Under the pieces are notes generated by a model. The model was not told the origin of the DNA. It made no database searches and saw only the letters and a program-made list of their open reading frames with translations. Made by a program: the position numbers and the translations under genes. A stretch of DNA of 64,000 nt from a bacterium (GTDB taxonomy: Bacteria > UBA8248 > JACPRG01 > G963555815), in the NCBI GenBank assembly GCA_965218795.1, contig OZ244653.1:3840001-3904000 (forward strand), in the 5' to 3' direction. This document shows positions 34,029 to 58,458 of this stretch, in pieces. How positions within the stretch are numbered: position 1 is the stretch's first letter; every line of letters starts with the position of its first letter.

Positions 34029-35195
34029 GTGAATTTGAACCGCTCATTGATGTCAAGAAATTTAACTTTCCTGGTTCTCAGCAATTCGTTCCTGTTTCTT
34101 GCCTATCTGAGCTATCAGCTCCTGCCGCTGCACATCAAGGCGTTGGGCGGGGGGGAGTCGGACATCGGCAGGGTCATGGGTGTACCCAACCTGATGTCCG
34201 TTATTCTGACCCCCACCTTCGGCGTCCTTGTAGATCGTTTTGGCCGAAAACCAATCATCCTCCTCGGTCAAGGATTCGTCTTGGCTCCATGTCTGGGCTT
34301 CCTTGGAGCAGGGGATTCCTTCTTCCTTTTCGGGGTTTTCCGTGTCCTGCAAACTATCGGGATCGCGATGGCCTTCACTGCGGCGGGCGTGCTGGTGGCC
34401 GACACCACGCCTCCCGGCCGGCTGGCCCAAGCGCTGGGCCTGTATGGCCTCTCGGGTCTCGCCACACATGCCATCGCCCCGAGCGTGGGCGAGATCGTAA
34501 TTGACGCCGGAGGTTTTTCCGCACTGTTCGCACTCTCCATCGTCTATAGCGTGCTGGGTTTCGGGCTGGCCTCAAGGATCATCGACAAATCTCTGGAACA
34601 TGGAATTGCGCGAGGAGAGGGATCACTGTGGAAGCTATTCACCGCACCGGGATTCTCGCAAATTCTTCTCATCGGATTTGTGATGGGCGCGACCCTCGGC
34701 ACGGTGTCGACGTACATTCCCACTTACATTCGAAGCCGAGGGATTCAATGGATCAGCCTCTTTTATATCACTTACGCCCTGACGGCCATCTTTGTCCGGA
34801 TTGCGCTGGGGAGGATGTCTGACCGAATTGGCCATGAACGGATGGTGACGCCCGCATTCGGGGGTCTGGCGATCGCGGTTGTCTTGCTGAGTCAGGCTCA
34901 AGCTCAATGGATGTTTGCGCTTTCGGGCATGTTCAATGGCGCTTCGCACGGATTTCTATATCCCGCAACGAACGCGATGGCGCTGAATCGGGCGGGCAGG
35001 GAAAACGCGGGCAGAGCCCAGTCGCTCTACGGCGCCTCATTCAGCGCAGGGATGACGGCGGGAGTTTTCCTCAACGGCTATTTGGCCGACTTTTTCGGCT
35101 ACAGTGTGATGTTTCTCGGGATGGGTGGATGGATACTCATTGCTCTGTCGGCCTTCTACGGACTGGAGCGCCGCAGGCCGCCGGTTCCATCGTGA
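34029..35195 (+). CDS. MFS transporter
   Basis: G.L.DRFGRK motif A, repeated as GRMSDRIG; about 12 TM segments. Confidence 0.92.
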   Translation: MNLNRSLMSRNLTFLVLSNSFLFLAYLSYQLLPLHIKALGGGESDIGRVMGVPNLMSVILTPTFGVLVDRFGRKPIILLGQGFVLAPCLGFLGAGDSFFLFGVFRVLQTIGIAMAFTAAGVLVADTTPPGRLAQALGLYGLSGLATHAIAPSVGEIVIDAGGFSALFALSIVYSVLGFGLASRIIDKSLEHGIARGEGSLWKLFTAPGFSQILLIGFVMGATLGTVSTYIPTYIRSRGIQWISLFYITYALTAIFVRIALGRMSDRIGHERMVTPAFGGLAIAVVLLSQAQAQWMFALSGMFNGASHGFLYPATNAMALNRAGRENAGRAQSLYGASFSAGMTAGVFLNGYLADFFGYSVMFLGMGGWILIALSAFYGLERRRPPVPS

Positions 35196-35211
35196 ATCAA
35201 TAATCGATGAT

Positions 35212-35258
35212 CATCAATATCTTGTAATTTTTTCGAATTTTTCATCTATATATTGTAT
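35212..35258. promoter_or_regulatory. Tandem NrdR-box-like operators
   Basis: catCAATATCTTGtaa (35212) and catCTATATATTGtat (35243), 31 bp apart; consensus acaCwAtATaTwGtg. Confidence 0.7.
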
Positions 35259-35264
35259 TTTTTC

Positions 35265-35294
35265 TTGACAACATGCCCAAAGAGCGATTAGGCT
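35265..35294 (+). promoter_or_regulatory. sigma70 promoter for the candidate ncRNA
   Basis: TTGACA-18 nt-TAGGCT; predicted +1 near 35301 coincides with the 5' strand of the terminal helix. Confidence 0.65.
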
Positions 35295-35300
35295 TCTTAT

Positions 35301-35595
35301 GGGCTTGGGCGCTTTTGGGGCTCGTGAGGTGTCACTGGTCTGGTGATAAGTTGGCAGGGGAGGCCTGAAGACATCACGGGTTTCTATGTTGCAAGGCGCC
35401 GGGAAGGAGGTGATGATTAGGGGAAGTCGGACCGCAGACTGACCGAAATCAAATTACGCTCCAACGGAAGACGTGGTGGCGGTTCAAGTGCAAGCCACGA
35501 GGACATGTAAAGAATTTGAGGCGTCGAGGATTTCGTAAGCCGGTCGAGCAGAAACTTCGGTCAGTAGTCGGCGACAGAAAGAAGCGCCCAAGCTC
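35301..35595 (+). ncRNA. Unidentified ~295-nt structured RNA
   Basis: 16-bp closing helix 35301-35316/35580-35595 with G-U pairs; nested helices 35321-35327/35374-35380, 35438-35447/35556-35565, 35454-35458/35534-35538, 35472-35477/35494-35499; no credible ORF. Confidence 0.7.
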
Positions 35596-35629
35596 AAAGT
35601 TTTTCTCCTGCAAAGCTCTCTGTTCTACA

Positions 35630-36271
35630 TCACCGTTTGGATTTCTTGTAGCCTCTCCGGATCGCCTCCCTCTCGGTCTTGAACTCGACGCGGAACCTGC
35701 TTTTTTTCATCAAGCCGTAATACCTCCCCCCCTCAACGTGAAACTTGCGGGTTTTCGAATTGCCGATGATCGGCGGGTTAAGGCTGCGGCTCCGGGCCCT
35801 CCCCATGGAAATCCCCGCCCATAGACCTTTGCGTTGGGTTCTGGCCGTCCGCTCCAGGCGACGAAACAAATTCGCGTACTTCAGGTTGGGGGGATAGGGC
35901 GATGCGCGCGCGTAACCCTCAGAGATCAGCATGGCGTTCACCAGCCGTCCGTCGGCCAGGAATACGTATACCTGAAGCCGGCCGTATCGGTCCCATCTCT
36001 GCCGGCCGAACCGGATCCGAACCCTCTTGCCCTGAATCAGGTTCTTGAGAAATCTGCTCGCATCTTCTCCATAATACTCGACGGGTTTCCGGGGGTGACG
36101 GGTTTCAGGCGTATCGACCCCGATCAAACGCAGATGAACCTCAAATGTATCGCCGTCAATGACCCGCTGCACGCGGATATCCTGGGCTTGCGCCATGGTG
36201 CTTCGGGTCAAGCCGTAGGATCCTGACAAGATGAAAAATCCGAGAATCATTGTCGTAACGGTGACGGACAT
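35630..36271 (-). CDS. Thermonuclease (SNase-like) with signal peptide and C-terminal Ada-like module
   Basis: VIDGDT, RLIGVDTPE, DRYGRL..YV, AR...GLW; IIGNSKTRKFH...F.TE.EA...GY. Confidence 0.92.
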   Translation of the reverse strand: MSVTVTTMILGFFILSGSYGLTRSTMAQAQDIRVQRVIDGDTFEVHLRLIGVDTPETRHPRKPVEYYGEDASRFLKNLIQGKRVRIRFGRQRWDRYGRLQVYVFLADGRLVNAMLISEGYARASPYPPNLKYANLFRRLERTARTQRKGLWAGISMGRARSRSLNPPIIGNSKTRKFHVEGGRYYGLMKKSRFRVEFKTEREAIRRGYKKSKR

Positions 36272-58387: not shown

Positions 58388-58458
58388 TGGTGGAGGTGGG
58401 GGGAATCGAACCCCCGGGGCGAGCCTTCCAAACTGCGACCCCGCAACCTGCCACCCCC
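58388..58458 (-). ncRNA. 71-nt tRNA-like RNA (tmRNA/Ala-type acceptor, T-arm, encoded CCA)
   Basis: GGGGGTG/CACCTCC acceptor with G3-U70, discriminator A, CCA; T-arm GGGGG-TTCGATT-CCCCC; no canonical D or anticodon arm; no tag ORF. Confidence 0.75.

Follow-up and report, generated by a model that had tools for sequence, protein, structure and literature searches.

The window analysed here is a stretch of 64,000 nucleotides of bacterial DNA (contig OZ244653.1, positions 3,840,001 to 3,904,000), and its plus strand carries at 35301-35595 what is almost certainly a stand-alone gene for an abundant, compact noncoding RNA (ncRNA) of about 295 nt, with a conserved sigma70-type promoter, no match in Rfam and a range, as searched, of one bacterial family. 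The RNA is read here as a new class; the newness concerns the RNA family and not a proven new mechanism. An earlier note made from the sequence alone had proposed a stand-alone stable RNA, possibly of a new class, and the Rfam, covariation, copy-number and library results all back that proposal. The letters of the locus agree with those quoted in the earlier note, and G makes up 35.6% of the RNA and purines 60%. Large orphan RNAs with elaborate structure are rare in bacteria, and earlier examples have led to ribonucleoprotein machines, RNA cages and global regulators. With a fold supported by covariation, a conserved strong promoter and its own contig in the libraries of three studies, the RNA is directly testable. 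No description of it appears in the literature listings and abstract openings that were searched. The limits of the gene are as follows.

35301 to 35595, plus strand: RNA gene, set by the limits of conservation, single copy, the fold test and library contigs spanning 35310-35585.

Homologues were sought in 51 genomes of the phylum, seven from the same family (own genome included) and 44 from three other families. BLAST finds the RNA in five of the six family-mates and in none of the 44 genomes outside the family; the remaining family-mate, G005, comes up at 92% identity when a congener's sequence is the query, and a weak BLAST hit in G002 is on reading a full-length homologue. The RNA is present in all seven genomes of the family, every one of which is recovered by a covariance model, R1, at 89-124 bits. 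R1 was built on a truncated alignment and its automatic structure is wrong because that alignment had no partner strands, but it still recovered the whole family. Absence outside the family is as judged by BLAST and R1; every R1 hit there has E > 0.01. One such hit that was inspected lies inside a 268-aa open reading frame (ORF), and five other hits, in g7, share the same 95-nt length and a similar score. Among metagenome contigs, two of 69 pattern-scan loci (L176 and L160) are true homologues by nhmmer and the other 67 are chance matches; these two and the seven family genomes are the nine homologues compared throughout. A 16-mer scan of contigs was unspecific, with at least 119 loci, and among the matches listed only L083, L126 and L136 fit the profile, L126 and L136 being probably the same records as the G004 and G001 loci (identical scores). 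A 31-nt match in G057 is in the flank and not in the RNA.

The earlier note had asked whether the element occurs in many dispersed copies, as a miniature inverted-repeat transposable element (MITE) would. A genome-wide sequence search gives one match in the 5.17-Mb own genome, so the gene is not a MITE; a second, diverged copy is known from G003 alone (L225, about 1000-1290; model match G003:C22:26344-26456). The G003 second copy still has the upstream motif, the TTGACA promoter and the GGAAGGAGGT tract; the invariant motifs of its 5' domain are gone, and it folds no better than its shuffles (z = 0.0). It precedes a 274-aa ORF on the same strand, the start of which looks by eye like a signal peptide.

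A sigma70 promoter belonging to the RNA itself had also been proposed, and the region upstream has two features.

35217 to 35263, plus strand: AT-rich region with two copies of ATAT(C/A)TTGTA(A)TTTTTT, at 35217-35233 and 35248-35263, by direct reading.
35265 to 35294, plus strand: sigma70-type promoter of conserved geometry, with TTGACA at 35265-35270, an 18-nt spacer and TAGGCT at 35289-35294.

A scan for consensus promoters calls none on the plus strand, its sole promoter hit being on the minus strand; the scanner misses the promoter of the RNA because the -10 box TAGGCT fits the consensus at three of six positions only. The proposal is nevertheless borne out, as TTGACA, the 18-nt spacer, TAnnnT and a G at +1 are kept in both clades of homologues. 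The -35 box is identical, and TAnnnT lies at a fixed distance from it, in the main clade, the g2 clade and the G003 second copy. The start of transcription is placed at about G35301, the G six or seven bases past the -10 box being kept. Conservation begins about 70 nt upstream of the -35 box and ends directly after the last base of the terminal helix (GCTC). A U-rich run at 35596-35607 follows the 3' strand of this helix (P1), as U-rich tails do in most homologues; no canonical terminator is called after the RNA, and the one terminator-like hit, at 35075-35088, is inside the upstream MFS gene. The proximal copy of the upstream repeat (TAT.GTA.TTTT before CTTGACA) is kept in all aligned homologues, and the full proximal motif is found nowhere else in the own genome. 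The AT-rich direct repeat may be an UP element or an activator site. A motif similar to it, ATCAACATCTGGTATTTTTTGCTTGAC, is found at G000:C1:5089490-5089525 (G000 being the own genome), before a gene that by reading has a MutL-like product; the motif common to the two genes may mark a shared regulator or an UP element.

Public sequencing runs give suggestive evidence that the RNA is made. Of the words sampled from a 1401-nt stretch that includes the gene, 6-16% occur in the RNA-library runs and 94-100% in six runs of unrecorded library type, which are probably DNA libraries. Contigs were aligned from four runs of three studies, of which X1, X3 and X9 are labelled sponge metatranscriptome and X5 is guessed to be RNA. 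Each of the four has exactly one contig, 258-276 nt long, wholly within 35310-35585 and without loose ends, and these contigs differ from the window sequence at 0, 0, 1 and 9 positions. The four runs have no contig on 35000-35309 or 35586-36400, which is not counted as evidence; that the RNA contigs stop at about the same places, where the DNA-type runs continue, is a weak hint of a discrete transcript. Two points weigh against this reading: assembled contigs show neither strand, true ends nor level, and DNA may be present in the libraries. When the library contigs are weighed together with the promoter and the fold, it is very likely, though short of proof, that a separate RNA of about 295 nt is transcribed. 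The discrete transcript predicted in the earlier note thus finds suggestive support in short separate contigs, which do not prove its ends.

Folding of the plus strand gives -114.3 kcal/mol (z = -4.08), with none of 200 shuffles as good, and the minus strand has z = -2.38, with four of 200 shuffles as good. The consensus fold was computed with RNAalifold on six main-clade sequences, the g2 clade being handled apart, and consists of 89 pairs in 11 helices. Its cells are paired at 92.7%, compared with 34-42% when the partners are slid by one to three columns, and 20 pairs have changed on both sides, compared with three to seven when slid. None of 500 shuffles matches the observed paired percentage, the double-change counts or the covariation score, and the covariation that the earlier note wanted checked is found, at levels above both controls. 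Support is strongest for P1 (5 of 13 pairs covarying), P2, P7 (4 of 7 pairs covarying, each changed on both sides) and the helices inside P7. The consensus points to an architecture in which a 13-bp P1 closes two domains that are joined by a purine-rich junction.

35301 to 35313, plus strand: 5' strand of the terminal helix P1, pairing with 35583-35595; 13 pairs, 100% of cells paired, 5 double-changed.
35317 to 35384, plus strand: 5' domain; P2 97% paired, P3 and P4 97-98% paired.
35317-35327 with 35374-35384, plus strand: P2, enclosing P3 and P4.
35332-35346, plus strand: P3 hairpin of the consensus fold, with the loop GGUCU.
35350-35372, plus strand: P4 of the consensus fold, with apical GGAGG.
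35387 to 35397, plus strand: 5' strand of P5, pairing with 35567-35576 and closing the 3' domain; 9 pairs, 96% paired.
35410 to 35435, plus strand: P6 hairpin of the consensus fold, apical loop UAGGGGAA, with AGGGGAA unchanged throughout the main clade.
35438 to 35565, plus strand: 3' domain of the consensus fold, in which P7 (35438-35444 with 35559-35565) encloses inner helices and a variable tip.
35583 to 35595, plus strand: 3' strand of P1 in the consensus fold, with the U-rich run next to it.

The 5' domain (P2-P4) is nearly invariant in sequence and includes the invariant motifs GGTCTGGTGA and TGGCAGGGGA(G/A)GCC; the 3' domain (P5-P7 and the inner helices, the latter 77-90% paired) differs between the clades. 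The g2 clade keeps P1, P2, P3 and P5 with different bases: P2 has many changed bases, and P5 is GUUAC/GUAGU instead of GUUGC/GCGAC. The 3' domain of g2 has a different sequence and fold. In a strain variant from run X9 an A-U pair of the P6 stem has become G-C through the joint changes 35416 A>G and 35427 T>C, and 35432 C>T puts an A-U pair in place of the mismatch between that C and the A at 35413; these changes are independent support for the fold. The loops of P3 (GGUCU to GGUUU) and P4 (GGAGG to GGAAG) have changed together in G005, with a C-G/U-A pair kept between them, and from this one matched double change a contact between the two loops is possible.

Eight helices had been named in the earlier note, and when scored on the six-sequence main-clade alignment four hold and four are not conserved. 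The terminal helix, given there as 16 bp, is retained in its first 13 pairs, of which five are double-changed, and its last three are broken in two to four of the six sequences. CTCGTGA/TCACGGG (95.2% of cells paired) and CAGG/CCTG (95.8%) are upheld, as are the first seven pairs of ACTGACC/GGTCAGT, four of them double-changed (six among the full ten pairs). The proposed pairings TGTC/GACA (75%), GTCG/CGAC (58%) and TTACG/CGTAA (57%) are lost, together with the CGTGGT/GCCACG hairpin and its T-loop-like cap GGTTCAAGT (65% paired, no pair double-changed). The GGTTCAA stretch is one strand of a consensus helix with one covarying pair and is missing altogether from g2. G-U pairs are frequent overall, one pair of P2 being G-U in all six main-clade sequences, and this favours the plus strand, as had been claimed.

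Several known kinds of RNA were compared with this one. A cmscan search of the whole window at gathering thresholds gives one match only, at 58388-58458, and none on the RNA; a search of 35100-35800 at E <= 10 with 4227 Rfam models also gives no match on the RNA, and the XIST-repeat match within that interval (E 7.6) is a chance match outside the RNA. ARAGORN calls nothing at the locus. No Rfam family matches the RNA, and its separateness from RNase P RNA, tmRNA, signal recognition particle (SRP) RNA and 6S RNA, asserted before on the lack of hallmarks, is now confirmed, as each is found elsewhere in the own genome. The RNA is unmatched by the four models; the genome's own RNase P RNA (RF00010) scores 324.6 bits at G000:C1:3367213-3367588, a full tmRNA (RF00023) 200.7 bits at C1:4046707-4047067, a canonical 6S RNA (RF00013) 87.6 bits at C1:4826982-4827164 and SRP RNA (RF00169) 65.9 bits at C1:3496875-3496974. 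Part of the P3-P4 sequence resembles a thiamine pyrophosphate (TPP) riboswitch and another part a tRNA D-loop, both by eye only, and neither resemblance has support in Rfam. The own genome (98.9% complete, one contig) has no match to CsrA (PF02599), for which control searches are positive in E. coli, B. subtilis and T. maritima, and none to Ro/TROVE (PF05731), for which they are positive in two genomes including Deinococcus. GGA motifs are not enriched in the RNA, with eight compared with 9.43 +/- 2.08 in 1000 dinucleotide shuffles. A CsrB/Rsm sponge was rejected on the lack of a CsrA gene and on GGA at chance level, and a Y RNA (YrlA-like) on the lack of a TROVE gene and on the T-loop hairpin, which is 65% paired, without covariation and absent from g2.

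A small protein-coding gene was likewise rejected: reading frames differ among the homologues, and indels of 1, 10 and 13 nt are not multiples of three. No ORF is conserved among the nine homologues, those of at least 15 codons differing in position and length. In five of the six main-clade sequences an ORF of 18-51 codons starts from an ATG at alignment column 92; in G003 that ATG opens none of at least 15 codons, and g2 lacks it. The first nine codons of a short frame inside the RNA, at 35386-35442 on the plus strand, are alike throughout the main clade, an effect of conservation at the nucleotide level; the frame is read here as a probable pseudo-ORF. The RNA also does not behave as a riboswitch or 5' leader, as there is no Rfam aptamer match and a same-strand downstream ORF occurs only at the decayed G003 second copy. 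The earlier statement that the next gene is convergent is correct (an SNase-family gene on the minus strand), and since the downstream gene is convergent or varies among loci the RNA is not a leader, as was also held.

A clue to function may lie in the junction between P5 and P6.

35401 to 35414, plus strand: purine tract GGGAAGGAGGTGAT in the P5/P6 junction, complementary to the 3' tail of 16S rRNA.

The 16S gene of the own genome ends in GGATCACCTCCTTTCT, and the core of the tract, GGAGGTG, is invariant in nine of nine homologues. For all nine a duplex with the 16S tail is predicted, unbroken over 13-16 pairs and with energies of -20.5 to -26.6 kcal/mol, the tail having been read in the own genome only and assumed identical in the relatives. 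Compared with 76,897 genomic sites with a Shine-Dalgarno (SD) core, the weakest duplex is at about the 1st percentile (-20.8) and the best is beyond the 0.1st percentile (-24.1). As read from the alignment, the five variable positions of the tract change between A and G only and all face a U of the tail, and the eight positions that face C or A never vary; a variant in run X5, 35405 A>G, obeys the same rule. About nine nucleotides at the 5' end of the tract are unpaired in the junction in the consensus folds of both clades, and no internal partner for GGAGGUG is conserved across the clades. Across 6,959 long ORFs the frequency of the SD core has a 3-4-fold peak between -15 and -9 relative to the first ATG, so that initiation in this organism is, on sequence grounds, SD-led. 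Downstream of the tract the nine homologues share no conserved start codon.

Docking on the 30S subunit is proposed because of the invariant GGAGGTG, the duplexes in all nine homologues, the A-G rule, SD-led initiation and the lack of a conserved start codon. The RNA would act in trans through its P5/P6 junction, where GGAGGUG and its purine flank would pair over 13-16 bp with the anti-SD sequence (the pyrimidine tail at the 3' end of 16S rRNA) and would hold the RNA, which offers no start codon, on the 30S platform. Either initiation-competent 30S subunits would be titrated, making the RNA a brake on translation or a hibernation device, or the RNA would be tethered to the ribosome so that the conserved 5' domain can act there. 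Action in trans through an anti-SD duplex, whether by titrating 30S subunits or by tethering, is offered tentatively, as a possibility rather than a probability. That the docking makes the RNA a counterpart of the protein hibernation or silencing factors, or a ribosome-tethered cofactor, is a more doubtful suggestion. If the proposal is true, the RNA would govern how many initiation-competent 30S subunits are available in a lineage with slow-growing, sponge-associated members, which would give a new view of translational control in uncultivated, slow-growing symbionts; anti-SD clamping of this kind would be the first case known to us of a trans-acting RNA that targets the mRNA-docking site of the ribosome.

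Several points weigh against this proposal. At least 40 other SD-core sites of the genome reach -23.4 or better, and the tract is all purine and the tail all pyrimidine, so any purine run pairs fairly well. The homologues represent only about three to four independent lineages, so the invariance of G opposite C is weak statistically. Single-sequence partition functions give the tract an unpaired probability of 0.00-0.99, with partners that differ among homologues, and the consensus fold draws its last three nucleotides (GUG) into P6. The motifs of the 5' domain are equally invariant and are unexplained by the anti-SD model. No bacterial RNA acting in trans is known to us to bind the anti-SD sequence, and the listings returned by a literature search show none. 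Binding of the RNA to the ribosome is, at this stage, a prediction from models of the duplex and the fold. The distribution of proteins that act at the ribosome was also examined. The HPF domain (Ribosomal_S30AE) is found in 8 of 51 genomes of the phylum, with four of seven in the own family and two of 42 in f2, the largest family, and bS21 in 48 of 51; neither distribution is complementary to that of the RNA. HPF is unusually sparse in the phylum, the same domain search being positive in 11 of 14 control genomes. If the anti-SD idea fails, the RNA is still a new class.

It is also possible, and again well short of probable, that the RNA is a decoy or scaffold for a protein in the manner of 6S, CsrB and Y RNAs, with the motifs of the 5' domain and the purine loops (GGAGG, AGGGGA) as recognition sites. 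The long runs GGTCTGGTGA and TGGCAGGGGA(G/A)GCC are invariant whatever their pairing, which is typical of protein or tertiary contacts, and AGGGGA occurs twice compared with 0.29 expected, a count of two being reached by 32 of 1000 shuffles. The closed, compact architecture and the recovery of the RNA as its own contig in RNA libraries also fit a decoy. No candidate partner is at hand, however: CsrA and TROVE/Ro were not found in the one-contig, 98.9%-complete genome, GGA is not enriched (8 compared with 9.4 +/- 2.1), and a canonical 6S RNA exists elsewhere. Nor is any protein gene linked to the RNA at all loci, the SNase gene being lost in G001 and replaced in G004 and the MFS gene being absent from G001 and g2.

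The same G-rich elements, if exposed, could make the RNA a base-pairing regulator or sponge for C/U-rich small RNAs or mRNAs other than 16S rRNA. Several of them are conserved and lie in single strands or loops, and the RNA is 60% purine, but a conserved fold takes up most of its length, as is seldom the case in seed-pairing RNAs, and its best-conserved complementarity is to the universal 16S tail; a sponge of this type is therefore improbable. A catalytic or otherwise structural role, as a ribozyme or as the RNA part of an enzyme, with the active site or ligand pocket in the 5' domain, would account for the multi-helix fold with junctions, for the concentration of invariant nucleotides in one domain beside a variable peripheral one, and for the possible loop-loop contact suggested by the double change in G005. 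This too is quite improbable, given no likeness to any Rfam ribozyme or riboswitch even at E <= 10, no flanking exons, repeats or tRNA genes as a substrate context, and a very narrow distribution.

The genes on either side of the RNA raise a further possibility.

34029 to 35195, plus strand: MFS transporter, the upstream neighbour (Pfam MFS_1, E 2.2e-53), context only.
35630 to 36271, minus strand: SNase-family protein of 213 aa, the convergent neighbour (Pfam SNase, E 4.7e-25), context with no demonstrated part in the system.

The RNA could be a cis or antisense element of the convergent SNase gene, serving as a shared terminator or as a regulator of the 3' end of the nuclease mRNA. The 3' ends of the two genes are 34 nt apart in the window, and by reading of the own locus and seven others they face each other at the own locus and at G003, G006, L176, G002 and G005, five of the seven and in both clades. 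The RNA is intact, however, where the SNase gene is lost (G001) or has given way to transposase-like ORFs (G004), its promoter is its own and is conserved, and 295 nt of conserved fold far exceeds what a terminator needs, which makes a cis element very unlikely. At the G004 locus (L005 2084-3180) the ORFs in the SNase position are transposase-like by eye and adjoin the intact RNA gene. The MFS gene is also upstream in G004, G006 and L176, and by reading not in G001, G002 and G005; the RNA gene sits in a syntenic core-gene context. The SNase-family protein has by eye an N-terminal signal or membrane segment, and its Pfam match covers residues 47-152. A C-terminal extension outside the match ends in F.SE.(E/D)AI…Y.KSKR, a motif also found in the orthologues of G003, G006 and L176. 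Finally, a non-functional origin as a decaying mobile element, pseudogene or chance fold, for which the diverged G003 second copy with its kept promoter and z = 0.0 could be cited, can be dismissed as extremely unlikely in view of the single copy in a syntenic core-gene context, the compensatory changes in many helices, the conserved promoter and the presence in RNA libraries.

The one Rfam match in the window is a 71-nt tRNA-like gene on the minus strand at 58388-58458, which scores as the two ends of a tmRNA (49.1 bits) with 22 nt between them; the real tmRNA is elsewhere in the genome. ARAGORN assigns it to tRNA-Ser(GGA), though a tRNA-Ser would be longer. Alanine-type identity marks (a G3.U70 pair, A73 and an encoded CCA) can be read from its sequence, as can a promoter of its own, TTGACA (about 58528-58523)/TAAATT.

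Among known systems, the orphan RNAs raiA motif, OLE, ROOL and GOLLD, compared only through Rfam, are similar in being stand-alone genes with a complex covarying fold, in their presence in RNA libraries, in their narrow range and in having functions that cannot be deduced from their neighbours; they differ in that Rfam gives no sequence or structure match between them and this RNA. The RNA is smaller than OLE, ROOL and GOLLD, belongs to another phylum and does not lie in the gene contexts typical of those classes. 6S RNA (and the 6S-like Ms1) is also abundant with paired 5' and 3' ends, and the titration proposed here would be like that of 6S RNA in engaging a core expression machine by mimicking its nucleic-acid ligand. 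Where 6S RNA forms a long, irregular hairpin interrupted by a central bubble, this RNA has two multi-helix domains, and its proposed target is the ribosome and not RNA polymerase. The CsrB/RsmZ sponges are likewise purine-rich with SD-like GGA or GGAGG in loops and junctions, but they are strings of similar hairpins, whereas this RNA has a highly ordered conserved fold. tmRNA and bacterial Y RNA share the terminal helix that joins the 5' and 3' ends; in this RNA, unlike those, the T-loop-like stretch is not conserved as a hairpin.

The proposed anti-SD duplex has its own parallels. The contact proposed for the RNA would be the same duplex that SD elements of mRNAs form with the 3' tail of 16S rRNA, and RMF occupies or masks the anti-SD region. 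The proposed block of SD-led initiation would liken the RNA to RMF and to bS21, the latter reported to mask the anti-SD region in Bacteroidia (PMC7797042, PMC13000453). The RNA would differ from both SD elements and masking proteins in that the agent is an ncRNA without a start codon, predicted to form a far longer duplex of 13-16 bp.

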